A DNA stretch of 62,723 nt, the filler included, from Folioceros fuciformis (Eukaryota), in the NCBI GenBank assembly GCA_049999805.1. It is 3 parts of 2 records of this genome, joined end to end, with 100 filler letters (N's around TTAATTAATTAA, not from the genome) between each part and the next. Parts side by side here need not be neighbours in the genome. Positions count along the whole stretch, not along the records: positions 1 to 31,923 come from JBNGIO010006217.1; 2 more parts are not named here. One strand, given 5' to 3'. A program made the translations under genes and the position numbers. Below are positions 27,033 through 62,723 of the stretch, piece by piece. The first letter of the stretch is position 1. Each line of letters opens with the position of its first letter. The notes beneath the pieces were generated by a model that saw nothing but the letters and a program-made list of their open reading frames with translations, was not told where the DNA came from and ran no database searches.

Positions 27033-28385
27033 CTAAAGTTGAAACTTAACTTCTCCAACACGCGGTTGGGGATTAGCTTCAGGATCAGAAGATTCATGTG
27101 TTTTTCTCAAGGACTGAATTGGGGGTGGTACAACTTGTTTAGGTTTCTTGCTGTAGACATAATAAAGAATCACTTGAATAATGCCCAAGAGACAACCCGA
27201 ACCATTGGGAATCTGCCATTTCTCACACACAAACATCATTAAATTCTATTCTGATTTTAAATTCAATATAATATACTAAAATCAGAAAAAATGAGCAAGT
27301 AGTAAGATACCAAAATGTATGGATCGAAATATCCAGGCATGATCGCATACAGAGTCCAAACCAAGCCATTTGAAGCTAGGGCCATGGATAGATAAAGAGG
27401 CAAAGATTCCGCGCTCTTGGTTTGAATGACCTTCCTCTGCCAATCACGTCATATCATTATATAAGTAGTTTTCCAGAATTAAAAAAAAAAGATTAGGTTC
27501 CAAATGAAAAGGCAAAAAAGGCACACTTACCAGTACACTTAATGGTGAAGCATACATCAAAGCGCAGAAGATAACACAGACAAGGCCCATGATGAGTTTT
27601 CTGTCCTTGGGCTCGTCTTCAATGAGGAGCACAGGTAGAATAACCGCCAAAGCAATTACAATATCGCAGATAAACAACCCAACGATTTGCAGCTGCACAT
27701 AGTACAAATTGCATGAAGAACTTTGGGTTACTTGCAAATTGTCCAACATCTAACAATTTGCAATTGCAGGAATTTGAGACAACCCATGAACTGTGCAAGA
27801 ACTTGAGACAACCCATGAGCTGTACAGGAACTTGAGACAACCCATGAGCTGAGCAAACTTCACTTAGCACTACGAACCTGAATTCTGCTTTTGGCATAGT
27901 AGAAAAACGTGGAGAGGTAGATAAGTTGCATGACAGCTCCCACTGAATTAATAGTGTACACAAGCATGCCATTGGGCTGAACTTTCTTTGAACCATAGAA
28001 GATCCAAAACACACAGTTGAGGAGGGTACAAATATAGGGCACAGGAGAGTATTCCAAAGTGGTGCCGCTCTTGTACATGAGAAAGAACATCTGGCTGAAT
28101 TGATATTACATTGGAAATCAGTGAGTGATATAATCGACAATAGTTTTTATGAAAAATAAAATATTTCTATGATGAATAATACTTACATTGGTGACAAGAA
28201 AATGCCCAAGGATGTTACATTACCTGTGAAAAAAAGAAAGAATAGAAATCGTAAATAAAATTTAGATATTAAGCAAAATCAGGATTAAACCACTTCTATG
28301 TTTTAGATAGAAAAATAAAAAAAGTAATACCAATGATGCCGAACGCAAGACGAATAAGGTAGGAGGAATGGTGCGAAATCGTCAT
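27033..28385 (-). CDS. SWEET: SWEET sugar transporter (MtN3/saliva), multi-exon
   Basis: RLAFGIIGNVTSLGIFLSP, YSPVPYICTLLNCVFWIFYG, LVYTINSVG, MYASPLSVL|RKVIQTKSAESLP, DPYIL|IPNGSGCLLGIIQVILY. Confidence 0.93.
27771..27852. repeat. Intronic tandem repeat, ~29 bp x3
   Basis: ACTTGAGACAACCCATGAGCTGTACAGGA-type units. Confidence 0.8.
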
Positions 28386-28474
28386 ACTGTCCACCTCCCT
28401 GTGAAGAAAATCAATATGGACCAATAAGTACAAACACCAGCTTATAATAGGCTGAAAGACCTCAAAAGATGAAG

Positions 28475-28695
28475 AGTGATTGAGGAAGAGAGGACCCGAG
28501 CTCAAAGGATGGAGAGGAGGAATAGAAGACACTAGCTGAAAACATGGAGAGTGATACAGGAAGAGAAGATACTAGCTCAAAACATGGAGAGTGATCCAGG
28601 AAGAGAAGACAGTAGCTCAAAGCTAGCTCAAAACATGGAGAGTGATCCAGGAAGAGAAGATACCGGCTCAAAGGATGAGGAGTGATACAGGCTCC
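28475..28695. repeat. Degenerate tandem repeat, unit ~40 bp, upstream of SWEET
   Basis: Recurring GCTCAAAACATGGAGAGTGATCCAGGAAGAGAAGA. Confidence 0.75.
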
Positions 28696-28889: not shown

Positions 28890-29072
28890 ATGGATGAACA
28901 CTCTTGGACATGCAGATACTTTGGAACTTCTTGTGGATGAAACATTCGCGTGGCAGACTAAGGCTCCTGGACATGCCGATACTTCGGAACTTCTTGTGGA
29001 TGAAGCTTTCGGGTGGCAGAATAAGGCTCCTGGACATGCCGATAGTATGGAACTTGGTGTGGATGAAACATC
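28890..29072. repeat. Tandem repeat, 63 bp x~3
   Basis: GGACATGCCGATACTTCGGAACTTCTTGTGGATGAA...GTGGCAGA.TAAGGCTCCT repeated with a 63-bp period. Confidence 0.85.
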
Positions 29073-29264
29073 CACTCGACATTTTGGTGGATACAGTTTG
29101 TGCTCACGAGCGGCGTAGAACTACGGAATGCGGGAGTTGTCTTGGATCGGGAAGTGAAAATTTGAAGGAAAGATAACGACGGATCTGAAGGTGCTAGTTA
29201 AACCGTGACAGGGGTTAACTCACATATAGGTGGCGCTGGCCTGTGAGCGGCTTTGGGACGAATC

Positions 29265-29462
29265 ATGGACAGCGCGGGACTCAAGCAGGCGAGGGAGGCG
29301 CTGGACGTGGTGGTGGCTATGTCCAATCTGCTCAACACTGGTCTCGACAGGCAGACTCTCGCTATTTTGGTGGCGCTGTGTGAACACGGAGTTAATCCCG
29401 AGGCTCTTTCTGCCGTGGTGAAGGAGCTCCGCCGGGAGGCTGCGGCATTGGCCCGGAATTGA
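29265..29462 (+). CDS. MZT1: Mitotic-spindle organizing protein 1 (MOZART1 / GCP3-interacting protein), intronless, 65 aa
   Basis: AREALDVVVAMSNLLNTGLDRQTLAILVALCEHGVNPEALSAVVKELRRE is the MOZART1 signature. Confidence 0.95.
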   Translation: MDSAGLKQAREALDVVVAMSNLLNTGLDRQTLAILVALCEHGVNPEALSAVVKELRREAAALARN

Positions 29463-29720
29463 TGCCGTTGCGGAGTGCAGTTGGATGAGGCGCGGTGGAC
29501 TGTGCCGGATTTGTGTTTCTTGAGGCATGGTTGGGAGAGGAGGCGGGGTTGGTTTGGAGGTGTGTTCTGGTCTGGTTGAATGTGTGGATGTTTGTGAAAT
29601 GGCTGGAGTTGAGGGAAGGTTCGGTGATTAGGATGGCAGAGTTCTTTGCGAGGTGAGGTGAGGTGTGTAGTTTGTAGGAGTCGTGTTGCAGTGACGGGAG
29701 CTGGAGCTTTCTTGCTGGCC

Positions 29721-30987
29721 ATGATTGCGTTAGGGTTCGAGGGGTCTGCTAACAAGATTGGGATTGGAATTGTGAAGTCTGATGGGACGATCCTCGCTAA
29801 TCCGCGGCACACCTACATCACTCCTCCCGGACAGGGCTTTTTGCCACGGGAGACTGCCGTGCATCATCAGCAGCATGTGCTGCCCCTGGTGCGGGCCGCC
29901 CTGAAGGAGGCGGGGTTGGAAGGGAGTGACATTGACTGTCTTTGCTACACCAAGGGGCCTGGGATGGGGGCCCCGTTGCAGGTGTCCGCTGTCGTAGTTA
30001 GGGTCTTGTCGCAGCTGTGGAAAAAGCCGATTGTAGCTGTGAATCACTGCGTGGCACACATAGAGATGGGAAGGGTTGTGACGGGAGCCGTTGATCCTGT
30101 AGTTCTGTACGTTAGTGGGGGAAACACGCAGGTGATAGCCTACAGTGAGGGTCGGTATAGGATTTTTGGTGAGACCATCGACATCGCTGTGGGCAACTGT
30201 CTGGATAGGTTTGCCAGGGTGTTGAAAATTTCAAACGACCCTAACCCTGGCTACAATATTGAACAGGTAACGACGTTCTTTTTTGTTTTGTGGATGTTTC
30301 GGTCGTTGGTGGTGGTTTGGCCCGTCGGCTCACTTCAAGCACGTGATGTTCGTCCTAAGTGGCACAGTTAGCCAAAAAGGGGAAGGAGTTCATTGAGCTG
30401 CCGTATGTGGTGAAAGGCATGGATGTTTCTTTCAGTGGCATCCTGAGCTTCATCGAAGCTGCCGCCGTTACAAAACTAGCTGCCAAGGAGTGCTCTCCTG
30501 AAGACCTTTGTTTCTCCTTGCAGGTGCTTTCTGGCTTGCTTTCTGGTTAGCATGCTTCGTGGTGCTGGTAAAGTAACAGTCTTGATGGACACCTGCTTAC
30601 AGAGCTTTTCCCTGTGCTCAGGAGACGGTTTTCGCCATGCTCGTGGAGATCACCGAGCGGGCTATGGCTCACACCGATAAACAGGACGTTTTGATAGTAG
30701 GTGGAGTTGGATGCAACATGCGGCTGCAACAGATGATGCAGGTCATGTGTGACGAGCGAGGGGGTAGGCTCTTCGCAACTGACGATCGCTATTGCGTGGA
30801 TAATGGAGCCATGATCGCATACACAGGCCTTTTGGCGTATGAACATGGAATTACTACTCCAATGGAAGAAACAACTTGCACTCAAAGATTCCGGACCGAT
30901 GAGGTCCTAGCTGTATGGAGGGGCACACCAGCAAGCGAGTCTGTTGCTACACAGGCCCCGCTAGCTGCGAATCTGCTAATGAAGTAA
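29721..30987 (+). CDS. KAE1: tRNA N6-adenosine threonylcarbamoyltransferase (KEOPS Kae1/OSGEP), 3 exons
   Basis: [89 protein letters not shown]. Confidence 0.97.
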
Positions 30988-31599
30988 AGTACACTCTTGC
31001 ACTAGCGCAAAGTTGTCTTCACGACGACATCGTCATCTGTCCAGCTCTTCTGATCCTTCGCGGCCGTCATCCTGGTACTTCCTATCCAGAACACACGCTA
31101 GAATCCCTATTTGCTACGCTTGCCGAGTGTTCGTCTTTGCTCGAACGCTGACTCAAATGCAGCATACAAATGTCACAGCGGAGTGTACCCTTCTTTCACG
31201 ACCAGTCCCACCACCAGCAGAAGGAGCCCTATGAGGAGAGCGGTGGTCGGGCTCACATATGTCTGCTCATACGACTTGAACGTCACAAGGACCCCGACCA
31301 GTCCGATCGCCAAACCCCTCTTCTCGCACGTCTCCATAGCGACACTGAAGGTTCGCTGAGAAGCACTCGAATGAAGAGAGTGGACTCTTTCCTGTCTCCC
31401 CTTCTCTCGGCATGTGGATGCGGCGCTTCGAGTTGAGTCCCCACCGCAGTGCAGGAGTCATCCCTCTGGACTGTTCACGAGCTTATCATGATAGAAAAAA
31501 AGGATTGAAATTGTTTTAAACGTACGTAACTAACATGTTTTACTACTGGGCGCGTGATAATCAAAAGGATTTTTCTTGAACTATGTATCTCATTTTATG

Positions 31600-32675: not shown

Positions 32676-32723
32676 CGCCACTCTGAAAATATTTAAAATG
32701 AAAGCCATGCTTCGAGAGGAGAG

Positions 32724-32796
32724 CGATCACGGTGGGACTCGAACCCACAATCTCCCGCTCCGGAGGCGAGCGCCTTATCCATTAGGCCACGCGACC
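32724..32796 (-). tRNA. tRNA-Arg(CCG)
   Basis: Reverse complement GGTCGCGTGGCCTAATGGATAAGGCGCTCGCCTCCGGAGCGGGAGATTGTGGGTTCGAGTCCCACCGTGATCG; anticodon loop CTCCGGA; T-runs downstream. Confidence 0.95.
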
Positions 32797-32920
32797 GTGC
32801 ATGAAGGCAACTGTGATAACTAAATATATATTTTTAAATTACATAATTGCAGAGGGAGGAGTGTATGTGTTTCCGTCCACCCCAAGCAGAGTATTCGATT
32901 TGGCGTCACGACATTGTACA

Positions 32921-33475
32921 ATGCATCAAAGGCGCTACGAGTACGTGTGCCTGATGGAGCTGGAGCACGGGAATCCTATAATCTCCACACACACGGTGTT
33001 TGTGAAGCAGGGAGTTGGCCGGGGACTGCGACCGTGGATGCTTGCGTTGCCTCTAGTGCTAATCACAGCATTGATTTACGGCACGATCCAAGCGGCAGGC
33101 AATGTGGCGATCCTGCTGGCCTTGGTTCTTGCAGGTGCGCATCTTCGGAGAAGGCGCTCGGTGCTGAAAGAGGCTGTCGTGGTGATGCCGAACTTGGGGG
33201 TGCAGCTCGAGACTGTCTACGGCAGCGGAAAGGTGTCGTACCGTTTTTACCCTATGCACACGGTCCTGGCTGCCGTGATCAACGAGGCTGTCACACCCAC
33301 TCGCTGTTACTTTTACTTGGCTCTCATCCTCAGAGACGAGTCCAAGCTCGCGCTGGTCTTCCAGGAGACCAGGCCCCCTGTGAACATGCTGGTGCCCGTG
33401 TGGAGATATCTCTGCACTGCCTTCGCTGCTGCCAATTCCAGCCCCTCTGTTACCCTTCCGAGAAACGAGAGCTAA
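32921..33475 (+). CDS. PIGH: GPI-GlcNAc transferase complex subunit PIG-H, intronless
   Basis: Two hydrophobic helices followed by VLKEAVVVMPNLGVQLETVYGSG..RFYP..VLAAVINEAVTPTRCYFYLALILRDESKLALVFQETRPP..LVPVW. Start could instead be 32801 (same frame). Confidence 0.88.
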   Translation: MHQRRYEYVCLMELEHGNPIISTHTVFVKQGVGRGLRPWMLALPLVLITALIYGTIQAAGNVAILLALVLAGAHLRRRRSVLKEAVVVMPNLGVQLETVYGSGKVSYRFYPMHTVLAAVINEAVTPTRCYFYLALILRDESKLALVFQETRPPVNMLVPVWRYLCTAFAAANSSPSVTLPRNES

Positions 33476-33603
33476 ACTTCTCAAATATAGTGCTTCCTTC
33501 GTCGCGCTAGGGTTTATACTACGAAAATTATCTGCGACTCGAGAGGATTGCAGGATTTTGTTCCCGCGGATTACGAGGAGCAGGAGTGACGATCGTTGAA
33601 GCC

Positions 33604-34696
33604 ATGACGACAATCAGGAGATTCTGTTGCGAAGACCTTCTGCGCATCTCGCCTGTGAATTTGGACTATCTCACGGAAACGGTAATTCTAACAATTCTCT
33701 GGTTTGGTTGTTGTCGGTGGTGGGAGTTGTCGAACCGGAGCCGAAGCCGGAGCCTGATTTGTTTCTTTGCTGCCTGTCGACAGTACAACATGCCTTTCTA
33801 CCTCACTTATCTTGCAAGATGGCCGGACTATTTTCACATCGCTAAGGGCCCTAATGGATCTGTCATGGGCTACAGTTGAGTCGCATTGCCAATCCTTTTT
33901 TTGACTCCTGCGAATTATTTCTGTTCCTGCCTGATGTGAAGGGTTTCTTTCAGCTGTATTGACCCTTGTCTGCGAGGCTGGGACATGCGAGTTTGGTGAT
34001 GGAACGATCGTTGTTTGTTAACGTGTGTTATTCGTCGCGATTTTCGGTGTCTTGTTTCATGTACGCAGTTATGGGGAAGGTCGAGGGTCACTTGGAGTCA
34101 TGGCACGGCCATGTGACCGCTTTGAGTGTAGCACCTGAATACCGTCGCCAAAATTTGGCGAAGAAGCTTATGGGGATTCTTGAGGAAGTAACTGAAAAGA
34201 CGTACGTCCTCTATTGCTGTAGGGGTTTTAACTGGAGGACGTTGTTGTCTCTCCCATTGCACATCTTTATGCCAGCCCTTTCTCGCTTTTGTGTGTGGCA
34301 GGCACAACGCTTATTTTGTAGACCTTTTTGTTCGAGCATCCAATGCTCCGGCCATTCAGATGTACGAGAAGGTAAGAGGAATACGTGCCTCCCTGCTGCT
34401 AGTCGAGTCCTGTAGCGGGCAAATCCTCCGTCTGACGGTTTCTTTCTGTGTCGTGCTGTTCCAGCTGGGTTATGTCGTCTACCGAAGGGTGCTTCGTTAT
34501 TATTCTGGGGAGGAGGATGGATTAGGTAGGTCATATTCATTCGCACTGTTTTCGATGTTGAATAGCAGGCTCGAATCCTGAGTTTGTCCCGCAATCCTCT
34601 GCAGACATGAGAAAAGCGATGCCGAGAGACAAGGAGAAGAAGTCTGTCATCCCACTGAAAAAACCCATAACGCCTGATCAACTGGAGTATGATTGA
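33604..34696 (+). CDS. NAA20: N-terminal acetyltransferase B catalytic subunit, multi-exon
   Basis: MTTIRRFCCEDLL..VNLDYLTETYNMPFYLTYLARWPDYF, MGKVEG..ESWHGHVTALSVAPEYRRQ, AYFVDLFVRASN, GYVVYRRVLRYYSGEEDGLDMRKA; ends DQLEYD*. Confidence 0.97.
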
Positions 34697-35785
34697 CACT
34701 TCTGTAGAGCCTTTTCTTCGTATTATGATTTCCTCCTGGCAGCGAAACAAAGCGGTTGTATGAGTGCTAAGTTTTCAAGTACTCACAGTGTGGCGGGTAG
34801 GGTAGGGTAGGGCTCTCATGAGTCACGTCGACGCACTCGGAACATAGGCCTCAGAAGATATCTGTCGGATGGTTGAAGGAAGTGAGCACTGTGCTCTCAG
34901 GATGAGACTCTGAGGTGGTTTGTTAACTGGAGTTGCGTGTCCTGCTATAGAATCCAATTCCCGTCCAAGTGCAACTGGCTGTGCCTTGGCTGCTTTCTCA
35001 ATTGTATGTCGTTATACACCAGTAGCAACTCGCATCATACTTTAGCATAAAAAGGAAGGAGGAATGTTAGCGCAGTCTGAGATCCGTTGTGAGCTTGCAG
35101 TGAATCTGGCTGCGGCCGCCCTTGAACTTGGCTTCGAGCTTGCAACTTTCGCAGAATCTCTTTGTCAGTATTTCTAGGCTTTGGGACAAACTGTAACACA
35201 TGGCGCATTTGAGATAATCTTGGGCCCACTGTTGGCGTCACTGTGGATAAAAACAGCAGCATGGGCCACATCGGCTGGCCGGGCCCCGGTACAAGGTTCG
35301 TTGGCCCGGCGGGATGCGAACCGGGGGTATGGAGGAGGTCTGCTGGCCGGGAAAACAATGCCGTATTTTGGATGCTGGTTTTGGCAAACCGCTGTTCATA
35401 GGCTGTGTAGAGGAATCGAGTGGCGGGGGAGGGGAAGTATGCGCATCTAGTTGGTCGAGGTCGACTGGGATTCCTCGGACACGGACTGAAGCGATGGTCA
35501 GACTGCAGCAGCATTGCGGTGTGAAGGAGCGATGTGTGCCATGGTGGTGGGCCTCAGGCCTGCCTGCAAGCTATGTATATGGTGCCTTCGCGCCCTCTTC
35601 AGACCACCTGGGATCCGTTTCTCCAGCCGGCACATTCAGGCGCTCCGCCGAGTTTTCATGGCGAGGAACGCGGGGATGCGGCAGTTTTGAAGTCCTGACT
35701 GGCCTCCAGTATGCTCCTAGCTTATTGCTTTTGCTGCTAGGTGGCTGTTGCCTGCAGGAATTTTCCCGCCACTCATCTGTACACA

Positions 35786-38766: not shown

Positions 38767-41700
38767 TCACACACTCTGATCAAGCACGGATAAGGCCCAT
38801 GATGCTGGGTCCAGGTGTGTGACATATGTACTCTGCTCCGTTGCAAGACCAAGCTGGTTAAGCGAAGCATTCTGGCCTCCGATCTGGGGATGCTTTCTGT
38901 CCCCAACAACAAAACTGTGGACCTGTCCATCTATGTCTGTCCACCAGCTCTGGCCTGGCTGCTTCCGTGCTCCCATTCCTTGCCTCCTCACCTGCATCTC
39001 CTGTGCCTCCTCCCACATCTGGGCACCGGAATATATCATGGACATCAGCACATAGGCTGCAGCATCTTGTGGGTCGAGCTTCACAGCTTCGTTAAAAGCG
39101 AGCAGCCCAATGTCTACATTGGTCCACTTTCGACAGGCACTTAGGAGAGTGTGCCAAACTGCCATGTGGGGCTGCACAGGCATCGACAGCACCACTGCTA
39201 GTGCCACGTCGAGGTTGCCTGCTCGACTCAGGAGATCTACCATGCAAGTGTAGTGCTCCACTGCAGGACTGATGCCGTACTGTCTGCTCATAGCCTCAAA
39301 GTACTCTTGCCCTTTGCTCACCAGGCCTGCGTGGCTGCATACTGTTAGAACACTGAGGAATGTTACGCTGTCTGGTTGGATGCCATGTTCTTTCATTCTG
39401 TGAACTAAGGCGAACACAGCTTCACTGTCTCCTTGACGGGTGTATCCTGCAATCAGGGCATTCCATGCAACAATGTCCCTGTCAGGCAAGGTATCGAACA
39501 CCTGCTGAGCATCAACTATGCTCCCAGACTTGGCGTACATGTTTATCAAACTGTTGCCTATGGTTGAATCCGCTTGGAGCCCTTGTTCCTCGACCTGTGC
39601 ATGAAGCTGTCTCCCTGCATCCAGTGCTGCCACACCTGCACATGCCTGGAGGAGGCACACAAATGTCACAGAATGCTCTGGAGCAATGCCCTCATCTTGC
39701 ATGGCATTATGAAGACGAAGGGCTTCCTGACCCATGCCCTGCTGCATATAGCCTGTGATGAGAGCAGTCCAGGTCGCCACATTCTTTTCATTGAGATTGT
39801 CAAATACGCTCTGAGCATCTTGTAGGCTGCCGCACTTGGCGTACATGTTCACCAAGCTGCAGCCTACTATCACATCAGCCTCCAGTCCCTGTTTCGATAT
39901 CTGTGCATGGAGCTCCCTCCCCCTTTCCAAAGCCAGGGTGCCCACACTTGCACATGCCTGAAGGAGGGACACAAACGTTACCGAATCAGGTGCAGCAAGG
40001 CCTTCCTCTTCCATTCCGCTGTAGAGGTGAAGGGCTTCCTGACCCATGCCTTGCTGAGCATATCCTGAGATCATGGCATTCCACGTGATCACGTCTTTTC
40101 GACCGAGCTTGTCGAAGACGCTTTGGGCATCCTCTGCACTGCCACACTTTGCGTACATGTTTATCAGACTGTTGGCTACAAACAGATCCACCTGAAGCCC
40201 TTGTTCTCCAATCTGCGCATGAAGCTGCTTCCCCTTCTGCAAAGCAGCATTACCTACATTTGCACAAGCCTGCAGGAGGCAAACGAATGTCACAGAGTCA
40301 GGTGCCGAGATTCCTTCGTCTTGCATAGCACTGTAAAGACGGAGCGCTTCCGCGCCCATGCCCTGCTGAGAATATCCTGCGATTAGAGCGCTCCATGTCA
40401 CCACATCTTTGTCATCAAGATTGTCGAAGACAGCTTTAGCATCGCTTAGGCTGCCACACTTGGCATACATGTTCACCAGGCTGGAACCTACAACCATATC
40501 AACTTGAAGCCCTCTTTCTCCAATCTGTGAATGAAGCTGCTGTCCCTTCTCCAAAGCCGGGGTGCCCACACTTGCACATGCTTGCAGGAGGTACACAAAT
40601 GTTGCAGAATTAGGAGAAGCCGTGCCTTCTTGCAGCAAGGCGCTGTAAAGATGAAGGGCATCAAGGACCCGTCCCGCCTGCAAATATCCTGCTATCATGG
40701 AATTCCACAACGTCACATCTTTCTTACCGACTCTGTTAAACACGGTCTGGGCATCCTCTAGACTGCCACACTTCGCATACATGCCAATCAAAGCGTTTGC
40801 CACAAACACATCAGCTTGAAGCCCTTGTTTGCCAATGTGTGCATCAAGCTGCTTTCCCATCTTCAACGCTGGTGTACCCACACTTGCACATGCCTGTAGG
40901 AGGCACACAAATGTCACAGAATCAGGCACAGGACCGCCTTCCGCTATCATAGCACTGTACAGATTAAACACTTCCTGACCCATGTTCTGTTGGGAATATC
41001 CTGCTAAAATGGCATTCCAGGTCACCACATCTTTTTGACCAAGCCCGTCAAAAACTCTCTGGGCATCCTCTAGGCTGCCACACTTTGCATACATGTCTAT
41101 CAAACAGTTAGCAACAAACACATCAGCTAGAAGCCCTTCTTCTTCGATTTGGACGTGAAGCCGCTTCCCCTTCTCCAAAGCTGAGGTGCCCAGACTTGCA
41201 CATGCGTGAAGAAGGCTGGCAAACGTCACAGAATCAGGTGGAGCGGCACTTCCTTCTTCTTGCATATCGCTGAAAAGATGAAAGGCTTCCTGAAGCATGC
41301 CATGCTGGGAATACCCCGCTATCATGGCATTCCAGGTCACCACATCTTTCTGACCAAGCCCATTAAAAAGGCTGTGAGCATCCTCCAGGCTCCCACACTT
41401 GGCATACATATTTATCAGACTGTTGGCTACAATCACACGAGATTGAAGCCCTCGTTTCTGAATCTCTGCATGAAGATGCTTCCCCTTCTCCAATGCCTGG
41501 GTGCCAAGACTTGCACACGCCTGCAAAAGGCCCACAAACGTCACATGATTGGGCGCAGCCTTGCCTTCTTTCTGCATAGCATCGTAAAGACTAAGGGCCT
41601 GCTGGCCCATTCCCTTCTGGGAACATCCGGTTATCATTGCATTCCACGTCACCACATCCTTCTGACGAAGCCCAGCAAACACTCTGTGAGCGTCTTCCAA

Positions 41701-42783
41701 GCTGCCACACTTTGCATACATGTTGACCAGGCTGCAACCTACGACTCCATCAGCCTGAAGTCCCTGTTGTTGAATCTGTCCATGGAGCTGCTTGCCCCTC
41801 TCCATAGCCGGGGAGCCCACACTCGCACATGCCTGCAGGAGGCACACAAAAGTCACAGCATCAGGTGCAGTCAGGCCTTCCTTTTGCATTTCACTGAAGA
41901 GACAAAGGGCCTCCCTACCCATTCCCTGCTGGGAATATCCGGTCATCATCGCATTCCACGTCACCACAGTTTTGTGACGAAGTCCAGCAAACACTCTTTG
42001 AGCTTCCTCCAAGCTGCCGCACTTTGCATACATGTCCACCAAGCAACTACAAACAAATGAATCAGGCTCAACCCCACTGGCCAACACATCTGTATGCACC
42101 TGCTGCCCAGTTTCCAAGTCATCTCCCCGAGCACAAGCCTGCAAGGCTGCCACAAACACGTGGCCATCTGGCTTCACACTTGACCCACGCATCTCGTGAT
42201 ACAGTTCTATGGCCTGCTTAGCTTGTCCTTGTCTCACATGCGCAGAAATCATGGATGACCACATGAAGGCATCTGGTTCAGCAACCACGGTGAACACATC
42301 CATCGCTTCTTGCAACCTGGCTTGAGAAGCATACATCCGCAGGAGGTGATTGGACAAGAAGGTGTCGGAGTCATAACCCGTCTTCACGCAAAGAGCATGA
42401 ACACGACGACCCAGAACCAGATCCTTCCTAACCACGCATGCTTTCACGAGAGTATAGAGGAGAGGCTTGGAACTTGGATCCTCCTTCTGCACCAGAATTT
42501 CAAGTGCCTCGACGGCCTCAGCCAGCTGCCCTTTTTCGCATAGTCTACTCACAGTATCAGCCGTAACGCTGGCAGATATCTGTTCAGCAAGCTTAAAGTC
42601 TTCTCTCGGATGGGCTTGGGATGCCTTCCTTGGCAGACTGCTGCACCTCCCGGCTTCCTTGTTCGCTAATGCTTGACATCTCGCAGTCAGTTTCACACAC
42701 GCCTTGCCTACAAGACCAGAAAACCCCCCAATCTGATGCGCACAGAAGTCCTGTGGTCCTCCACCCCAAGAATCAAGTTCCAT
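38767..42783 (-). CDS. PLS-class pentatricopeptide repeat protein (about 30 motifs) with E domains and PG-box but no complete DYW domain; organellar RNA-editing factor type
   Basis: 1338-aa intronless ORF with ~10 P-L-S triplets (VTWNAMI..YSQQG / VTFVCLLQACAS / MYAKCGS), HYTCMVDLLSRAG and RKQPGQSWWTD..VHSFVVGDRKHPQ; stops before any HxE/CxxC. Confidence 0.96.
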   Translation of the reverse strand: MELDSWGGGPQDFCAHQIGGFSGLVGKACVKLTARCQALANKEAGRCSSLPRKASQAHPREDFKLAEQISASVTADTVSRLCEKGQLAEAVEALEILVQKEDPSSKPLLYTLVKACVVRKDLVLGRRVHALCVKTGYDSDTFLSNHLLRMYASQARLQEAMDVFTVVAEPDAFMWSSMISAHVRQGQAKQAIELYHEMRGSSVKPDGHVFVAALQACARGDDLETGQQVHTDVLASGVEPDSFVCSCLVDMYAKCGSLEEAQRVFAGLRHKTVVTWNAMMTGYSQQGMGREALCLFSEMQKEGLTAPDAVTFVCLLQACASVGSPAMERGKQLHGQIQQQGLQADGVVGCSLVNMYAKCGSLEDAHRVFAGLRQKDVVTWNAMITGCSQKGMGQQALSLYDAMQKEGKAAPNHVTFVGLLQACASLGTQALEKGKHLHAEIQKRGLQSRVIVANSLINMYAKCGSLEDAHSLFNGLGQKDVVTWNAMIAGYSQHGMLQEAFHLFSDMQEEGSAAPPDSVTFASLLHACASLGTSALEKGKRLHVQIEEEGLLADVFVANCLIDMYAKCGSLEDAQRVFDGLGQKDVVTWNAILAGYSQQNMGQEVFNLYSAMIAEGGPVPDSVTFVCLLQACASVGTPALKMGKQLDAHIGKQGLQADVFVANALIGMYAKCGSLEDAQTVFNRVGKKDVTLWNSMIAGYLQAGRVLDALHLYSALLQEGTASPNSATFVYLLQACASVGTPALEKGQQLHSQIGERGLQVDMVVGSSLVNMYAKCGSLSDAKAVFDNLDDKDVVTWSALIAGYSQQGMGAEALRLYSAMQDEGISAPDSVTFVCLLQACANVGNAALQKGKQLHAQIGEQGLQVDLFVANSLINMYAKCGSAEDAQSVFDKLGRKDVITWNAMISGYAQQGMGQEALHLYSGMEEEGLAAPDSVTFVSLLQACASVGTLALERGRELHAQISKQGLEADVIVGCSLVNMYAKCGSLQDAQSVFDNLNEKNVATWTALITGYMQQGMGQEALRLHNAMQDEGIAPEHSVTFVCLLQACAGVAALDAGRQLHAQVEEQGLQADSTIGNSLINMYAKSGSIVDAQQVFDTLPDRDIVAWNALIAGYTRQGDSEAVFALVHRMKEHGIQPDSVTFLSVLTVCSHAGLVSKGQEYFEAMSRQYGISPAVEHYTCMVDLLSRAGNLDVALAVVLSMPVQPHMAVWHTLLSACRKWTNVDIGLLAFNEAVKLDPQDAAAYVLMSMIYSGAQMWEEAQEMQVRRQGMGARKQPGQSWWTDIDGQVHSFVVGDRKHPQIGGQNASLNQLGLATEQSTYVTHLDPASWALSVLDQSV

Positions 42784-43929
42784 CCTGTTTGCTCTGTGCT
42801 TTCATCACGAGCTCAAAGCCGGGTGCATCACTACGTTACATGATGGGATGACTAATTCACGATATCCACCAAACATGCCCTGTTCACTGCAACACATTGA
42901 TTTGCCATATTCCCATCCACTGATCCACAGGACTCCTGCATTTCGGATTTGTGATACCAAGGATGTGTCAGGAAGAAGAAGAAGTCTGGTACACAGATCA
43001 CTCTTATGAAATCTTCCGTGTTTAGTAGTCCAGTCCACCACTTCTATCATCTAGAACAACTCTCTCCGACCCGACTCGAATCGAGCATTCTTAACCACCA
43101 GGTTTTTGTAAATGTGTGTCCAATCTGGACCTTGTTGGGACTAAGTTGATGCCAGCTGCAGCCATGGTGATGAGACAGTGGGATGAAGATGAAGACTTGA
43201 TGGACAAATAGCTTCAATGATTTTCAGCCTCTAGTTCACAGGTGTACAATGCAATAATTTTTTGTCTTTATGTTCTGTATATTTCTCAATGATGACTTTT
43301 TTAATTCTTGGTGGATACGTTTATAAAATTAATTAATTGAAGTTAAATGGACACAAGTTTGTAAAAAGTGATTGATTAAAACCAAATGAACACAAATTTA
43401 TAAAAATTGTGGAATTGAGCATGCTACACTCAGGTCAGTACTTACGTGCTACTTAACGGTGTTTCTTTTCTCATTAAGAAGAAGAACAAGATATGGTGCT
43501 GATATGGTTGTAATGGACCTCACACAAGTTTCAATTTTCAAAATTTTCAAGCATATTATTCTCAAATCCCTAGATTGGGTGGCAAAGCATAGAGGAGAGT
43601 GCATCAGCCACAATTCACAAGTACACCCCTCTTGCAAGTTGGACACACCTTACAGTTTGTCCTCCTTGCTGTTAAGACCACAAGTACAGCCCCTTTGCAA
43701 GTTTGCAAGACACACCTTTGTTCCCCTTGCGATGGAAACCCACAGGTTATGTGCAAGACATTTTCCAAGTCTATAAAGATTTGTGTGATGCAATTCATAA
43801 GCTTAGTCTACCTCTTTTGAATATTGTAGCATTTTTTCGCATATTGTTTCCATTGCACTACAATGGGCATAAGGTAAAGGGTTTAGGGTTTGAGAACATT
43901 GGCAAGAGAGGTGGTGTGAATAACTCCAG

Positions 43930-45836: not shown

Positions 45837-48127
45837 TCACATGTCCCAACTGTCCTGACGGATGTGGAAGCCTTGCTTCTTCAAGGGGGTGCCCCCGAAC
45901 ATGTCGGAGAATCTTTTCAGACACTTGGTACGTTTCTCGTAGTGTGACTGGGTGTTGCGACTGATGGCTGAGCTGGAGAGCTTGGAGGTGTCCACTGCCC
46001 ATGACGGGTGGATGTACTGGACAGACACTCCAGAGCTGCTGTTGGCCAGAATGAAGTTGTAGAGGATGTCTTCACAGTTGAGGAGCTGGTCGACTATGGC
46101 CCTGCCCTCTGCGTTTGACTTGCTCCAGTATTTCTCGAAGCCGGATTGACTATCCATGAAGGCTGCACCTGTGAGCATCATGTTGTAGGCGTCTTGGGAC
46201 CTGGCGTATCTCTCGTTCTTGTATACCAGGCTGGTGTCGACGAGGCGTGGGTAGTAGCCTACGATTCTGCCAGGGTGCTCCCGCCATGCCTTGAACCCTC
46301 GTTCCACATCGTCGCATGTCACCATGATGTCGTCGTCCAGCTCCAGCACTGCCCTGGTGCTGATGTGAGGGTCTGGCCGGAACCTGTTGTTCAGGGAGTT
46401 CTTCTTTTCCACACGGATTCTGACGGGCACGGCTGAGTCGAATTGTGCGGGGTCGGGAGGCTGCCCCTTGTTCCACACCACCACTATTTCCCGCACCGAT
46501 GCACACCTGGAGTAGTGCCTTATGTACATTTTGAGGTTCCACAGTCGGGCCTCGTAGGTCATGGTCACCATGGTGAACTGTGAGTACTGGTGCCGGATGG
46601 GGTACGGCTCTTCTGCACCGTTGCCACCCAAGAAGCAGGCCACCATGACGCACACAGCCACCAAGCTCACGCTGAAGCTCAGTGCAAGAACCAGGAAGCC
46701 GAAACAGCTCTTGGCTCGCACTCTGCCCCTCACGAAGCTGTTGCTCCTGTTCAACACCAGCATGAATTTGTACATCCTTGCCCCAACACCAGGACGGTAC
46801 CAGGGAGCCAAGACGTCGCTCCTGCCTGGGACCAGGTACATGCTGGGTGGGAGAGCACATCGCACAAAACCCAAGAGCACGCCCAGGAGGAGGTTGGAGG
46901 CGGTCAGTACCAACAATCCTAACAAGCCCGTCAATCTCCTGTTCACGATATCCCCACTGGGCACTCGGTCTCCGTCCATGGCTGCAATCCAGTCTCCGTT
47001 CGGGAGCATGTGAGCATCGATGTGGTGATACCTCATGCCATTCCAGGCATACCGCCCCTTTCTGGGCTCCACGAACCCGAGAGGCACCTCCACCTCCTTG
47101 TACCTACTCCTGTCTAGCTTAACGATCTTAAAAGCTCGCACCCTGCGCCCATACGTCTCGCCACAGTCCTGCCCGAAACGATACCAATTCCCATCCCAGA
47201 AGATGGGTCTCCCAGCATTACGAGAGCCCAAGCTCTTGTGCCGGTTGTGGATGGGATTCGCCCCGTGCTGCGACCATAGTCCTGACAAGGAGCTGGAATA
47301 CCAAATCTCCAGCTCCCCATTTTTCACACACCCAAATCTTGTATGATCCGACCCTAAAATCCAGAACAATCCATCATATTTCACAAGTGCTGCATCCACC
47401 AGTGGCTTCCCAATGAGCACACGATCCAGAGTCCACTCCAGCGGGAAATCCACTGCTCTGTACAGCCGGAGGTCACCCTTCTGGCTGCCCTCAGGCATCA
47501 TATATATCTGCGACCCAGCGAACCAGCTCAACCAATCAAAGCTCCTCTCCAGCCTCCTCCTCCTCTTCCTCCTCACATAACACAAACACGAAACCAAAAC
47601 AAGACATTCAAGCATTGTCAAGCACCTGTCCGGCGTGCTCAAACACATAAGGATAGGAAAGATGCCACTCCTCATCCAGAGCAATTCCAAGCGACGTCCA
47701 GGTGGAGCCGCCATCAACACTCTCCGCCACACCTATGTCCCCTTGCAAAGTCACACTGTTTTTGGTCTCGTAAAACAGATAAAACCTATTCCCCTGGATC
47801 CAGCAAACGCGGCGCCGTTAGCGACAAAGCCAACAACCTCCAACTGCCCACGACCACCACTATCACCACCACAGCTCACACAGACACAGACACGCACACA
47901 GACAGGGACACGGACACACACAACTATGCGCCCTGTGCTTCTCCACCTGCATGAATAGAAACGGATCCGCCACGAAGTTGCTGAGATGGCTGCCGTTGGA
48001 GACAGCGGCGCAGGTAAGCACAGGATTGGCCACCGGCCAAGCAGCTCCTCCATCACTCTGCGCATTTTCCTGCACTCACCCGCATTCCCTTCACAGTTTA
48101 GTCCCCCTCCCCACTGTGTTGTGCCGC
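45837..48127 (-). CDS. GINT1: Glycosyltransferase family 64, glucosamine inositolphosphorylceramide transferase type; 5' end lost in gap
   Basis: Exons AWPVANPVLTCA..SNFVADPFLFMQ, LFYETKNSVTLQGDIGVAES.DGGSTW..LGIALDEEWHLSYPYVF, IYMMPEGSQKG.., and GT64 core SQFTMVTMTYEARLWNLKMY..NSLNNRF..VLELDDD..NCEDIL.NF. Confidence 0.93.
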
Positions 48128-48227: not shown

Positions 48228-51200
48228 CTATTGCAGGGAGCTCACAGGGAGCTTCCTCACAGAAGAAACCCAAGAAGACCGGGAAATGCAACTGGTGCAG
48301 AATTCCCGGCCATTAGGGAAACGAGTGTCGTAAGAAGCAGGCTGGCATACCTCGCAAGGAGGGCAATGCGAATGCTGAAACACACGTCGTAGTAAAGAAG
48401 CAATCCTCTCCTTCCGCCCTGACAGTAGGGGTAAGGGAGTTTGCTCAACCTCTAGTCTTTCCCACATGCTTATCTGCCATAGCAGAGTGTAGACCATTTC
48501 AAGAGTGGTACTTAGACACAGGTGCAACAGCGCACATTTGCTTTGATAGAAGTGCCTTCTCCACCTACAGACAAGTAAAGGATTAGTTTGTCTATTTAGG
48601 TGATGACAGGGCATTGGTATCTCCAAGAAAGGGCACAGTGTTCCTTCCTGTGCCTTCAGGGCTAAAATTGTCCCTCACCAATGTTTACTATGTGCCTGGA
48701 ATGACTAGGAACCTCATTTATGTCAGGCAACTGAACATAGACAACAATAGTCACATTCTGTTTACCCCCACATAGTGCCAGATCCTTGATGCATTTGATC
48801 ATCGTAAGGTCTTAGCTTATGGATCTTCTGACCATGATCTATTCCGACTTCACTTGCACAGTATCCCTATACAGTCCCACTTGACGTCACAAGGTGAGCT
48901 CTCACCTTTACATCAAACAGACAAAGCCATATTATGGCACAATAGGTTAGGTCATCCACATGGTGCTAAGCTGCAAAAACTGGCTACCAGTGACCTATAC
49001 TATGATGGAAAGATTGGCACTCTTCCTATCTTACCTCTGTGTGAAGCTTGTGTGTTATCTAAGCGTCACCAAGCAGCCTTCAAAAACAGGACCCCACACA
49101 GAGCCTCTAATGTCCTCGAGCTAGTCCACACTGATATTTGTGGGCCACTGTCACAGCCTTCCATAGGTGGTGGCAAGTATTTCCTAACCTTCACTAATGA
49201 CAAGACAAGGTTTGTCATGGCTTATATCTTGAAGGCCAAAAGTGAAGCCTTCTCTCAATTCAAAACTTATTTAAAATTTGTTGAGAGATGGACAGGACAA
49301 CAGCTCAAGACCCTCCGCTCNNNNNNNNNNNNNNNNNNNNNNNNNNNNNNNNNNNNNNNNNNNNNNNNNNNNNNNNNNNNNNNNNNNNNNNNNNNNNNNN
49401 NNNNNNNNNNNNNNNNNNNNCTACCTTACCATTGCCCTATTGGGCTGAGGCCCTAATGACAGCTGTGTATTTACGAAATAGATTACCTACCACTGCAGTT
49501 GTAGGTCAGACGCCATATGAGGCTTTCTTTGGCAGGAAACCGTCTATCCTTCATCTTCGAACCTTTGGTTGTATCGCTTATGCTTTCATCCCGAAGGAGA
49601 AGCGTAAGAAGCTATCTGCAAAAGCCAGAAAACTCCTTATGATAGGCTACACTGAGGGCATAAAAGCTTATAAACTGTATGATGTCCCTCAGAACAAGGT
49701 GATATATGCACGAAGCGTTACCTTTGACAAAGGACGTGTTTGGACGCCAGTGGGAACACCTCCAGATGACAGTGATGATCTGTCTGTTCTCCCCAATATC
49801 ACTTTCTTTGATGACTCAACACCTGCGGAGATTGCTCCTGCAAGGGGGGATGAGCATGATAATCAAGTTAATCCAGTTGACCCAGCAGAGGATGATGCCT
49901 TTGCTGACCTTGATGAGCAGCAGCAACAACCTCCCATTGCTGTTGAGCTACAACCAGACATACCAGATCTAGATGATGATGACGCTGCAGACGATGCAGC
50001 CGTTGTTCTGGACAGTGATGATGACGTTGATGCAGTTGAACAGCTACCACATCCTGAACCCCCACTTGAACTTTGATACCCTGCAAGAGAAAGACATGCA
50101 CCTGATTACTATCAATCACATGATTTCAGGTCAAGTTCAACACGTGCTAATGCTATGAGTCTGGACCCTACAGAGCCTCGCACCTATGAAGAAGCTATGA
50201 GTAGGCCACATGCTATAGAGTGGAAAAAGGCCGTTCAGTCTGAGTATGACAGCCTCATCAAGAATGGCACTTGGGAACTCGCAAAATTACCTTTTGGACG
50301 CAAAATGGTGTCCTGTAAATGGGTATTTAAACTCAAGGTTAAAGCAGATGGTACCTTTGACAGGTACAAAGCCAGACTCGTTGCTCGTGGCTTCTCCCAA
50401 GTACCAGGTCTGGATTATCTGGAAACTTATGCTCCTGTGGTGAAGCTAGCCACGTTTCGTGTTCTCTGTGCAGTAGCAGCACATCATGACTATGAGTTGG
50501 AAATGTTTGACGTCAAAACAGCCTTCTTACATGGCAAGCTGGATACTGAAATCTATATGCAGCAACCAATGGGCTACGTAGTAAAGGGAAAAGAGGACCA
50601 TGTTCTTCGCCTAATCAAGACCCTCTATGGTTTAAAACAGTCAGCTCTTGAATGGAATGCAGTCTTAGATGAGGAACTGCGAGCTTTAGGCTTCATCAAA
50701 TGTGTTTCAGACAATAGCCTGTATGTCTACAGGGCTGGAGACACTGTATGTTACCTTGCTGTGTATGTGGACGACTTGATACTCGCATGTAACAGTCCCT
50801 CCTTTATCACAAAAATTAATGGCCTCCTATCCAAGAAGTTCAAGATGTCAAACTTAGGAGCTTTACAAAGCTGCCTTGGCATTCATATTCAGATAGATCG
50901 AAAGAAAAGAGTTTTAACTCTCACTCAACCAAGATACCTTCTTGATAGCGTAGACCAACTTGGACTCAAGGATGCAAAGCCTGTAGTCACACCTCTACCA
51001 AGTGGACTTAAGCTTAGCAAATCCATGAGCCCACAAACGCAAGGTGAAAAGGACAAAATGCTTCCTATCCCTTACCGCAAGGCAGTAGGAAAGCTCATAT
51101 ATGCAGCAAACACTACTCGTCCTGAAGTGGCATATTCCACAAGTGTGCTCTCACAATACTTGGAAAACCCTGCACAGGAGCACTGGACTTGTGTTAAGAG

Positions 51201-51436
51201 GGTATTTCGATACTTAAAGGGGACAGCACAGTATGGAATCGTTTACAAATACAAACCTGATGCCTCCCTTGAACTAGATGTATATACCGATTCAGACTAC
51301 GCAAGTGACATAGACAGTAGAAGATCTGTCTCTGGATATATCGTCATGTTTGCTGGGGGACCAATCTGTTGGTCCAGCAAGAAGCAACCAACGGTTGCTC
51401 TTTCAAGCACAAAAGTCGATTACCGTGTCCTCACAG
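48228..51436 (+). mobile_element. Ty1/Copia retrotransposon internal region (gag knuckle, protease, integrase, RT, start of RNase H), decayed
   Basis: CNWCRIPGH*GNEC, WYLDTGAT, LWHNRLGHP, LELVHTDICGP, WAEALMTAVYLRNRLP, RYKARLVARGFSQVPGLDY, DVKTAFLHG, YVDDL, YTDSDYA; stops and frameshifts present. Confidence 0.96.
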
Positions 51437-54110
51437 CCTGTGAGGTGCTTTATTTTTAAAAGCAGCTTGATGTCTCTTGGAAAGAACATAGGACTCGCAA
51501 GGTGGGAGTGGAGCCAACGTCCCAATTGGTCCATCTTGATAAAGGTCACTAACAGCTAACCTCTGTAGTTTTGCTGTATGAGGGTGACCTAGTCTTGCAT
51601 GCCATAACTTGGACTTGTCTATTTGTTGTGTAGGTACAGGGGTGACATCTCGAGTAATGTGAGAGGTTGGAGCACCACTACTTGTATGAAGACGAAATTG
51701 ATCATGATCCTCAGAACCATAGGCAAGTATTTTTCTATGGTCAAATGCATCCAGCAGTTGACACTCAGTTCTAGTGAATAACATGTGACAATTGTTGTCA
51801 GCATTCAACTTTATGACTGAAATTAAATTTCTAGTCATGTTTGGCACATAGTAAACGTCATGTAGTGTTAGTATTGCACCTGACGGAACTAACAAGTCTA
51901 TTGTGCCACGACCAGGGGACACTAAGGATCTGTCATCTCCCAGGTAAACATATTGATCCTTTGCTAACTGTTAAGTTTGAAAAGATCCTTTGTCAAAAAA
52001 AATATTTGTTGTAGCACCTATATCTAAGTACCAGTCCATAGCTTGGCTTACCTTCAATTTTGTTGACAGGCAAGCAGGATGCAAGTATGAACTTGCAAAG
52101 ACTCTCGTACCTACAGTGAGGGCAGAGGGGGTAGGTTGTTTCTTCACAACCACGTGAGTCTCAACAACTAATGAACCCTCCTTGCGAGGAACACCAGATT
52201 GCTTCTTTCTACACTCATGTTCCCAATGACCAGGTAACTTGCACCAATTACAAGTTCCTGTCCTTTTGGGTTTTCTTTGGTTGGCTCCTTGTCCTTGTGA
52301 GCCACCACCTCTAGATGTATTGCCTCCACCTCTGTTGTAGGGTTTTCCTCCTCCACGGCCCCCATTGGATGTGTAGAGGGCTTGCTGTTTTCCAGAATTT
52401 ACTGGAACCCCTTATTGCTTCTTCTTGGAGCAATGCTCCCACTAACTCTGCAAAGGTGGTTTCAGGAAGTGTAACATTCGCTACCTTTGCTAGTTTCGAG
52501 GTTTGAAGATGTGAAGCATTGAAGGATGTCACGAAATGTGACCATGATTCTAGGAGAGACAGTAAGAAGTATAAGCTTAACATGTCTTCTTTGACACACT
52601 CATTTGAGGCACTCTCCAATTTGGAGACAAGTGTCCTGAAATGACCAAGGTGCTTCTCTACTGATTCTCCATCTTTCATCTTGCAATTCAGTAAATTACG
52701 CAAGGTTGTCAATTGACTCGTTGTGTTGCTGCCTGAATACAGAGCCTGAAGTTGTGTCCAGATTTCTGCTGAGGTTTTACACCCGGATGTCTGCCTCAGC
52801 ATATTTGAGGTTAAACTACTCCGGACGAGGAATATGACAGCTTCATCTTTTGCCACCCATTCATCCTATTTCAACTTTTCAGAAGTGGTAGGTGTCGTGG
52901 TAGTAGCTGGGAAGTCTTCATCACCAATAGCTATCTTCCAAAGCTTCTTATTTTGTAAAGCTCCACGCATTCTGATTACCCATATGTCGTAATCATACCC
53001 ACCAAATCTGTCTTTTCTCTAAACCCTTCCCCACCATAGCTAGATGAGGGATCAGTCATTTTTCTTCTTTTGTATTATGGGTTAGCTACTCCCAAAACAC
53101 TAAGATACTAAAAATGACTAACCTTTGTAGGTTTGTTTATGTGGACCTTAGGCACATGTATCTTCAGCAACAGAGTCAGAGAATGTTAGCAGCAAGGTTG
53201 GACAAACTGTCTATAGGTATGTTTATTAACCCCTGATGCTGTGCAGCATTCCCTATTCTCTTATTTCTAATCTCCAACATGTTGTACGAATGTAGTACAT
53301 AAGAAGGACAAGAATTTGGACTGTTATTTATGAACTCTACTTGTTTTCTTAGCGTGCTTACAAGCTGCTCCTCTGAAAGCATGATTAGCAAGCAAGGTAG
53401 GCTTCAACAAGGTTAGCAGTTTAAAGTCCAAATGATCTATTTTTTCAATTAGATCATGCAAGTTAACAGTCACTGCAATTATCCTTTGTGAGATATTGTC
53501 AAAACGCCTGTCAGTTTGTTGCTGGTGTGCCTCGATCCTATTTATCAATTTGTCAACTGTAAGTGATTGAGAGAAATGAGAAGTTAGGAAACCTCTCTGA
53601 TTATAGTTTCTTTATGGTAGTCGTTTTGCTGCAGCATTCCATGATGCTTGCGCAACGACTTCTGGCCCCATGCAACGATTCTGGTGATGAATCCGCTTAG
53701 CAAGGCGATGTCGGCCATCCACTCGATCGGCCATTCATTTGGCCAAATTTTTGTGTTGACAGAATTCCTTTTTAAACATTTTGTGTTATTTATGAATGCC
53801 ATTAATAATCTGACTATAGACTAGGTAGTTTTCCTAGCGCATCCCTGCTGATTTTGTTGAGGTAGCAAACCAGAGGGGATGCGTTGAGATCACTCCCTTA
53901 ATCTAATAGAAATTACAAGTGCATCTTCATAAACAATCAACACAAAATATATACTTTCTATTCTTTATTTCTTGATCAAGAAACTTAATTTCTAGATCAA
54001 AATAAACAAGAAAACTATATAAATGCATTCTTTAAAATGTATTTTTAAAGGTGCATTCATTACTCCACAACCTTCATCCTACTGCTCTAATATTGCTCTG
54101 ATAGCATAAC
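51437..54110 (-). mobile_element. Second related Copia element in opposite orientation (leader, gag, protease, pre-integrase), truncated
   Basis: gag EIWTQLQALYS..KMKDGESVEKHL, CNWCKLPGHWEHEC, WYLDIGAT, LHDVYYVPNMTRNLISV, LWHARLGHP; PBS-like TGCTATCAGAGC (one mismatch to the tRNA-iMet PBS) at 54095-54106. Confidence 0.88.
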
Positions 54111-62439: not shown

Positions 62440-62723
62440 TGTGAACCTCCAAAGTTTGGGGTAGTAGTTTGTTTTGGTTGAAAAAGGGTTAATAGTGGTA
62501 TGGTTTGGTTTTCTTTTTCAACTTATTTTCCCTAATTTTCCTTGATTTTCTGGTCATTTTTCCTATTTTTCTTTGTGCTAATTAAGTTAATTGACCAGGA
62601 AATAGTTGGTTTGGTTATAAGAGTGGGTATAGGTTTGGTCCCAGACCTGGGAAGGTTTAGGTTCGGTACCAGGCCATAGGGTTGGGTGATTAGTTTAATA
62701 TTAATTAAAGATATATAATATTA
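62440..62723. mobile_element. Probable start of a nested insertion (LTR-like) interrupting the Gypsy integrase
   Basis: Integrase homology ends abruptly at ..LMKSLGV and is replaced by T-rich non-coding sequence beginning TGTGAACC. Confidence 0.5.

Follow-up and report, generated by a model that had tools for sequence, protein, structure and literature searches.

Closely spaced MZT1 and KAE1 genes in Folioceros fuciformis, covered by one assembled RNA contig: packed neighbours or a candidate bicistronic locus

The MZT1 and KAE1 genes and the RNA contig across them

In a 62,723-nucleotide (nt) stretch of DNA from Folioceros fuciformis (assembly GCA_049999805.1; three joined parts of two records, hereafter the window), two complete protein-coding genes follow each other on the same (+) strand with 258 nt between them (29463-29720). 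The first is an intronless open reading frame (ORF) of 198 nt and 65 amino acids (aa) at 29265-29462. It encodes MZT1, a microprotein of the gamma-tubulin complex. The second, at 29721-30987, has three exons and a coding sequence (CDS) of 1,068 nt for the 355 aa of KAE1, the catalytic subunit in tRNA t6A synthesis, which is unrelated in function to MZT1. An initial annotation made from the sequence alone had described the same pair, with an intronless 65-aa MZT1 ending at 29462 and KAE1 starting 258 nt further on, and every one of these coordinates is correct. It had also proposed that both proteins come from one transcription unit, by leaky scanning or reinitiation, or that MZT1 is nested in an alternatively retained intron of the KAE1 5' untranslated region (UTR). 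Our analysis joins the two genes at the RNA level, and with moderate confidence we read them as tightly packed genes whose transcription overlaps or reads through, with KAE1 probably expressed mainly from a shorter mRNA of its own.

By homology, the 65-aa ORF is a full-length MOZART1/MZT1 of the plant GIP1 type. It matches the Pfam MOZART1 profile (PF12554) over positions 1-47 of 47, with an E-value of 2.3e-24 and 85.3 bits (cut-off, 27), and 56 of the 57 candidates recovered in the homology search are homologues. The closest relatives in BLASTP, at 79-83% identity, come from a lycophyte, mosses and other assemblies, and the alignment shows invariant residues common to 29 homologues (G26, D28, L38, G42, P45-L48, V51, V52, E54, L55 and E58). 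The three-exon gene is, on the same kind of evidence, a full-length KAE1/OSGEP of the TsaD family and of the eukaryotic/archaeal Kae1 type. The Pfam TsaD profile (PF00814) matches its exon 1 (E 4.4e-47) and exon 3 (E 2.6e-14), and its 355-aa product is colinear from residue 1 with KAE1 of land plants and the charophyte Chara, to which it is 80-88% identical (e.g., 85.8% over 345 aa for P0059 and 87.7% over 333 aa for P0075). Among the matches listed, the best come from liverworts, a conifer, a fern and Selaginella, and the top ones are annotated by their sources as tRNA N6-adenosine threonylcarbamoyltransferase. Since the product aligns with its homologues from its first residue on, the ATG at 29721 is the conserved start. 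The protein database that was searched holds no entry for either the MZT1 or the KAE1 protein itself.

The RNA evidence consists of assembled contigs of public runs, and a contig spanning two genes does not establish one transcript. Run X1 is the only run that covers the locus well (0.88 of sampled words). A single X1 contig of 1,836 nt lies with 0 mismatches on 29040-30262, 30364-30520 and 30619-31074, with both KAE1 introns removed and the leader, MZT1 and the entire spacer kept. None of the runs that contain the locus is recorded as RNA; because three introns are removed in X1, this run was treated as complementary DNA (cDNA), and since one contig covers both genes, MZT1 and KAE1 are linked at the RNA level. 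The proposal of one transcription unit therefore holds insofar as the contig over 29040-31074 joins the genes, but it falls short of a proven single transcript, as a contig can neither prove single molecules across both genes nor exclude shorter mRNAs. The initial annotation had named an MZT1 poly(A) site and a separate KAE1 transcription start within 29463-29720, with no spanning reads, as grounds to discard its proposal; at contig level the outcome is the opposite, as the X1 contig runs unbroken through the spacer.

Transcription starts leave no mark in assemblies, and short poly(A) tips are usually trimmed. No 31-mer near the contig start at 29040 is repeated within the window, so this start is not a break at an in-window repeat. 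Further X1 contigs extend + strand transcription to about 31488, just 5' of an A-run, and reveal an optional GT..AG intron of 88 nt 3' of the KAE1 stop (31075-31162, +), which is removed in a minor X1 variant (joint 31073>31162; depth 23.3 vs 97, contig depths not being taken as evidence). Run X2, from an organism (B) about 92-95% alike in KAE1, covers only 29699 onward at a likeness of at least 90%, and it counts neither way for MZT1 or the spacer; nor do runs X3 and X4, which gave no matching contig. Two tandem-repeat arrays, at 28461-28673 (40/51-nt unit) and 28901-29071 (63-nt unit, 2.7 copies), are found near the RNA contig start; both are in the divergent intergenic region between MZT1 and a - strand ORF at 27622-28146 that is SWEET-like by reading and has no Pfam match. 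The features of the locus are as follows.

29040-29264 (+): 5' leader of the long RNA, from the start of the X1 contig; ATGs at 29047, 29063 and 29128
29265-29462 (+): MZT1 CDS (PF12554); ATG context A at -3, G at +4
29463-29720 (+): inter-ORF spacer of 258 nt, unspliced in the cDNA contig; six internal ATGs and one more overlapping the MZT1 stop
29462-29656 (+): chain of four mini-ORFs, abutting, computed from the sequence
29683-29691 (+): acceptor-like GTGTTGCAG in the sequence, unused in the assembled RNA
29721-30266 (+): KAE1 exon 1, 182 codons, with TsaD match; ATG context G at -3, A at +4
30267-30367 (+): KAE1 intron 1, 101 nt, GT..AG, skipped in X1 and X2 contigs
30368-30523 (+): KAE1 exon 2, 52 codons, in the X1 contig
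30524-30621 (+): KAE1 intron 2, 98 nt, GT..AG, skipped in the X1 contig
30622-30987 (+): KAE1 exon 3, 121 codons and stop, with TsaD match and in the X1 contig
30988-31488 (+): transcribed region 3' of the KAE1 stop, probably 3' UTR, from X1 records 1-3

Upstream AUGs and the spacer sequence

Leaky scanning to KAE1, one of the routes proposed at the outset, is very unlikely judging by the sequence, since the MZT1 AUG stands in a strong context and the AUGs that follow it are not depleted. Context strength was judged by the general Kozak rule rather than by a consensus of the species' own. Between the MZT1 and KAE1 AUGs there are eight others (29319, 29462, 29485, 29527, 29580, 29588, 29599 and 29633), and those at 29527, 29599 and 29633 are themselves in strong context (purine at -3, G at +4). 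AUG counts are at the expectation from shuffled sequences, both in the spacer (6 vs 5.2 ± 2.1) and in the 681-nt leader at 29040-29720 (12 vs 13.0 ± 3.3).

Reinitiation on the long RNA is, on the sequence, a possible route to KAE1. The initial annotation had pointed to an ATG that overlaps the MZT1 stop (TGATG) and opens an 8-codon ORF. This ATG is present at 29462, and its ORF (29462-29488) is the first of four mini-ORFs, followed by those at 29485-29523 (12 codons), 29527-29631 (34) and 29633-29656 (7). The junction gaps, counted from the MZT1 stop on, are -1 (UGAUG), -4 (AUGA), +3 and +1 nt; the last mini-ORF ends 64 nt 5' of the KAE1 ATG, and the other three spacer AUGs fall inside the 34-codon ORF. 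Four or more tight junctions appeared in 204 of 20,000 dinucleotide shuffles, and a chain that is tight throughout, the strict definition, in 32 of 20,000, a statistic defined post hoc on an A-poor sequence whose composition clusters ATG, TGA and TAG round the same few A's. We consider the chain suggestive and unexplained, and not evidence of function.

The spacer is unusual in base content, with 44% G, 31% T, 14% A and 11% C. The earlier description of it as G/T-rich like local introns was roughly right, except that the spacer is more G-rich than the KAE1 introns, with a G+T fraction of 0.75 against 0.67 and 0.62. No other 258-nt stretch on either strand of the 62.7-kb window is as rich in G+T as the one found here (0.756 vs a mean of 0.508, standard deviation 0.063), and only the 258-nt segments starting at 29402-29542 reach a G+T of at least 0.72 in the scan of the whole window. 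The G+T content of the spacer is well beyond the window's own spread.

A motif search of 29463-29760 gave no match to TATA, the telo-box or site II, nor to AATAAA-like hexamers even with one mismatch allowed; the sole pyrimidine run of at least 7 nt in this region is CTTTCTT at 29707, none being longer. This agrees with the initial remark that the spacer shows no AT-rich poly(A) region and no CT-rich promoter tract. Two UGUA (TGTA) motifs are present in the spacer, at 29666 and 29673. UG-rich sequence with UGUA motifs resembles the plant far-upstream polyadenylation element, and our best guess is that the G+U-rich spacer is a candidate plant-type UG-rich polyadenylation enhancer for MZT1. A structured RNA or an element like an internal ribosome entry site was considered for the spacer and rejected: there is no Rfam match at an E-value of 0.1 or below, and the minimum free energy of the fold (-66.7 kcal/mol) is no better than that of shuffles (-67.95 ± 3.7; z +0.34).

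Conservation, known systems and interpretation of the pair

MZT1 loci were collected by a pattern scan of metagenome contigs with the MZT1 alignment, which yielded 80 loci, and KAE1 was sought at these by tblastn with three exon peptides. KAE1 was found beside MZT1 at 0 of the 80 loci, of which 66 have at least 500 nt, 50 at least 1,000 nt and 30 at least 2,000 nt of downstream sequence. Among the loci without KAE1 are two moss-like ones, L001 and L002, which have 76% identity and downstream sequence of 2.4 kb and 6 kb. Furthermore, none of eight longer MZT1-bearing proteins has a TsaD domain, and PF12554 is present in 0 of the 120 KAE1 proteins among the matches listed. The pairing thus appears lineage-specific at most, and the cross-species conservation of the green-algal or CDC26-TTM3 type was not found among these loci.

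Tight same-strand pairs with MZT1 upstream occur in contigs of other microbial eukaryotes, with changing partners. Med20 starts 12 nt 3' of MZT1 in L071 (121-1041; 1 ATG in 252 nt), an AAA_18 protein 4 nt 3' of it in L032 (2-1061; 0 ATGs in 298 nt), and a 242-aa ORF 37 nt 3' of it in L026 (1317-2352; 0 ATGs in 307 nt). From their sequence, these three may be bicistronic loci in which MZT1 is ORF 1, and their AUG poverty is not matched by the MZT1-KAE1 locus. At four further loci, Med21 (L059), a TXD17-like thioredoxin (L060), a DEAD helicase (L064) and synaptobrevin (L070) follow at 119-491 nt; these are not AUG-poor, with 2 to 12 ATGs from the MZT1 frame to the downstream ATG.

To our knowledge, proven nuclear two-protein mRNAs are very rare in land plants, and CDC26-TTM3, a bicistronic transcript of land plants reportedly described by Lorenzo-Orts et al. 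in 2019, is the reference case. As that system is presented in PMC11291117, the present locus is like it in having a land-plant ORF of about 65 aa for a cell-division-related microprotein 5' of an unrelated enzyme ORF. However, CDC26-TTM3 is cited there as conserved from land plants to Chlamydomonas, whereas the MZT1-KAE1 pair recurs at none of the 80 other MZT1 loci and is known here from RNA contigs.

The green-algal bicistrons (Gallaher et al. 2021, PMC7896298; PNAS 2025, PMC11892635) share with this locus a short ORF 1, which encodes a conserved microprotein, followed after a short spacer by a long housekeeping ORF 2 on the same strand, with RNA over both. The short ORF 1 and the short spacer are both present here, at 198 nt and 258 nt; according to PMC11291117, Auxenochlorella has medians of 291 nt for ORF 1 and 40 nt for the inter-ORF region, and Chlamydomonas a median inter-ORF region of 183 nt. 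An exclusive bicistronic mRNA is a green-algal feature, which the one contig across both ORFs would fit as far as contigs tell. According to PMC11291117 and PMC11892635, however, green-algal bicistrons as a rule have a weak ORF 1 context and fewer AUGs than expected ahead of ORF 2, and the addition of a single AUG to an algal inter-ORF region cut the output of ORF 2 by more than half. Here, by contrast, the MZT1 AUG is strong, the AUGs after it are not depleted, and the pairing is not conserved. The terms MZT1 and KAE1 are absent from the supplements of PMC7896298 and PMC11892635 (7 files each).

The read-through transcripts of Arabidopsis offer a parallel to what we propose. According to PMC9768141, 271 loci give read-through polycistronic RNAs, which are targets of nonsense-mediated decay (NMD) and whose second ORFs are rarely translated (7/8 tested). 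There, neighbouring genes on one strand are joined in one RNA; here, a single contig covers both genes, which by itself does not establish single-molecule continuity. In that system the first ORF is translated, while the second should yield little protein from the joint RNA and be served by an mRNA of its own; we propose likewise for MZT1 and KAE1. The two cases differ in that 158 of the 271 Arabidopsis transcripts in PMC9768141 show intergenic splicing, whereas the MZT1-KAE1 spacer is retained. A literature search on MZT1, bicistronic and plant found no paper, and the polycistronic MOZART1 papers among the matches listed hold no plant locus in their available text. The matches listed for bryophyte or Marchantia bicistrons contain nothing relevant, and PMC9170682 mentions polycistronic genes for trypanosomes only.

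In the explanation that we favour with moderate confidence, that of two packed genes whose transcription overlaps or reads through, a lineage-specific rearrangement would have brought MZT1 and KAE1 to within 258 nt of each other on the same strand, and the transcription of the one would overlap that of the other. The long RNA would serve as the MZT1 messenger, either as a read-through product or with an MZT1 poly(A) site at or beyond the KAE1 start. The shorter mRNA from which KAE1 would mainly be made would start in or near the spacer, most simply 3' of the last upstream AUG at 29633. On the long RNA, the strong MZT1 AUG and the AUGs of the spacer would intercept scanning ribosomes.

A second tight same-strand (+) pair is found 2 kb downstream in window coordinates, at 32801-34700, where the stop of a PIG-H gene (PF10181) at 33475 is followed by the start, at 33605, of a gene for an N-terminal acetyltransferase. 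This second gene is NAA20-like by reading of its N-terminus, and its exon 2 has a Pfam GNAT match (E 1.3e-5). The 129-nt spacer of this pair is free of ATGs by reading; it carries a CT tract at 33493 and, at 33508, a telo-box-like TAGGGTTT, and it looks like a promoter directly 3' of the upstream stop; such placement of promoters may be a local habit of the genome. Since this pair is even tighter than MZT1 and KAE1, tight packing may likewise be a habit of the genome, and close spacing by itself says little in favour of a bicistron.

Several points weigh against two packed units. A promoter and a terminator within 258 nt are assumed rather than seen, as the spacer has none of the promoter motifs or poly(A)-like hexamers that were sought. 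The locus is built like known bicistronic loci, its tiny ORF 1 being separated by a short spacer from a long ORF 2, and in the contigs of other eukaryotes MZT1 is ORF 1 within 4-37 nt of unrelated genes. Moreover, the extreme spacer composition and the chain of abutting mini-ORFs are not explained by two separate genes. If two overlapping units are nevertheless the case, which we hold to be more likely, the locus represents ordinary tight packing with read-through, and its practical use lies in alerting annotators that a 65-aa gene can readily be overlooked or merged when it sits in what looks like the KAE1 5' leader.

An obligate bicistronic mRNA of about 2.2 kb would have its promoter 5' of 29040, its poly(A) site at about 31488 and KAE1 translated by reinitiation, possibly via a relay through the four mini-ORFs. 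We consider this unlikely, though several observations speak for it. Both ORFs lie on one spliced contig that keeps the spacer, the spacer shows neither promoter nor poly(A) motifs, the mini-ORF chain is matched by few shuffles, and MZT1 is ORF 1 of very tight pairs elsewhere, such as those with Med20 in L071 and with the 242-aa ORF in L026. ORF 1 is also far shorter than ORF 2 (198 vs 1,068 nt), and the spacer is within the algal inter-ORF range given in PMC11291117 (Chlamydomonas median, 183 nt). However, reinitiation after a 65-codon ORF and four more ORFs should be inefficient, as is also argued in PMC11291117, and the second ORFs of the Arabidopsis read-through RNAs in PMC9768141 are rarely translated. 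The mini-ORF statistic is post hoc, on a sequence in which few A's draw ATG, TGA and TAG together, and the pairing is absent at 80 of 80 other MZT1 loci. Furthermore, if ribosomes terminate at the MZT1 stop, the mRNA would be left with a 3' UTR of about 2 kb and two downstream exon junctions, which are classic triggers of plant NMD.

If the locus were a true bicistron, it would be a second land-plant case and one unable to use leaky scanning, hence a test bed for plant reinitiation and for the expression of microprotein genes such as MZT1. The most far-reaching form of this idea, a lineage-specific obligate two-protein land-plant mRNA in which KAE1 is reached via a termination-reinitiation relay through the four mini-ORFs of the G+U-rich spacer, in place of the leaky scanning of green algae and CDC26-TTM3, and MZT1 is a recurrent 'rider' on housekeeping messengers, is a long shot.

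Alternative processing from one promoter, in which KAE1 would come from a minor isoform with its AUG-laden leader partly or wholly spliced out via 29691 and the retained form would serve MZT1, is improbable. The acceptor-like GTGTTGCAG reported in the initial annotation is indeed at 29683-29691, with donor-like GT sites upstream; a candidate donor GG|GTGTGT near 29560 would remove four AUGs, and the spacer resembles local introns, if at a higher G+T (0.75 vs 0.62-0.67). Yet splicing from 29560 would leave the AUGs at 29462, 29485 and 29527. In the X1 contigs, from which rare isoforms can drop out, no splice joint is found in 29040-29720, the acceptor-like site at 29691 included; the minor variant lacking 31075-31162 was kept all the same, at about a fifth of the depth. 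The same comparison lends no support to an intron-nested MZT1, as first suggested.

We give little credence to the idea that the contig is an assembly join only, the end of an MZT1 mRNA and the start of a KAE1 mRNA overlapping by at least 31 nt and being merged by the assembler with no spanning molecule. De Bruijn contigs merge any overlapping transcripts, and a contig across two genes proves no single one. However, a promoter and a terminator would be required in a spacer that shows neither, and such a join would biologically be a sub-case of the two packed units, differing only in whether read-through molecules exist. Finally, a fusion of MZT1 and KAE1 by stop-codon read-through was rejected: the two share a frame, but in-frame stops are present in the spacer, where the KAE1 frame is open only from 29628 and a frame-0 mini-ORF stops at 29597.

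Other features of the window

In the transcribed region 3' of KAE1, a 54-aa hydrophobic ORF is convergent to that gene (31173-31337, -), with two helices predicted by eye. It has 17 weak matches in 1.84 billion representatives, the best of them to a 52-aa protein (E-value 1.1e-9, 64% identity), and no convincing Pfam family was found in the 9 matches scanned. From its sequence it may be a real gene for a small membrane protein, or its matches may merely reflect composition.

Directly upstream of PIG-H, a tRNA-Arg(CCG) gene at 32723-32796 (-) overlaps the start of the longest PIG-H ATG ORF. Because of this overlap, the true PIG-H start is probably a later ATG, e.g., near 32923.

Gene density in the window is roughly one per 4-5 kb, with repeats and retroelement fragments between genes, and the window includes 316 N. 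The regions 38770-42801 (-), 45840-47732 (-), 48776-52865 and 59871-62478 have PPR, GT64 and retrotransposon content. The window holds an intronless PPR protein of 1,344 aa with an E motif, a GINT1/GT64 glycosyltransferase ORF, and fragments of both copia-type and gypsy-type retrotransposons.

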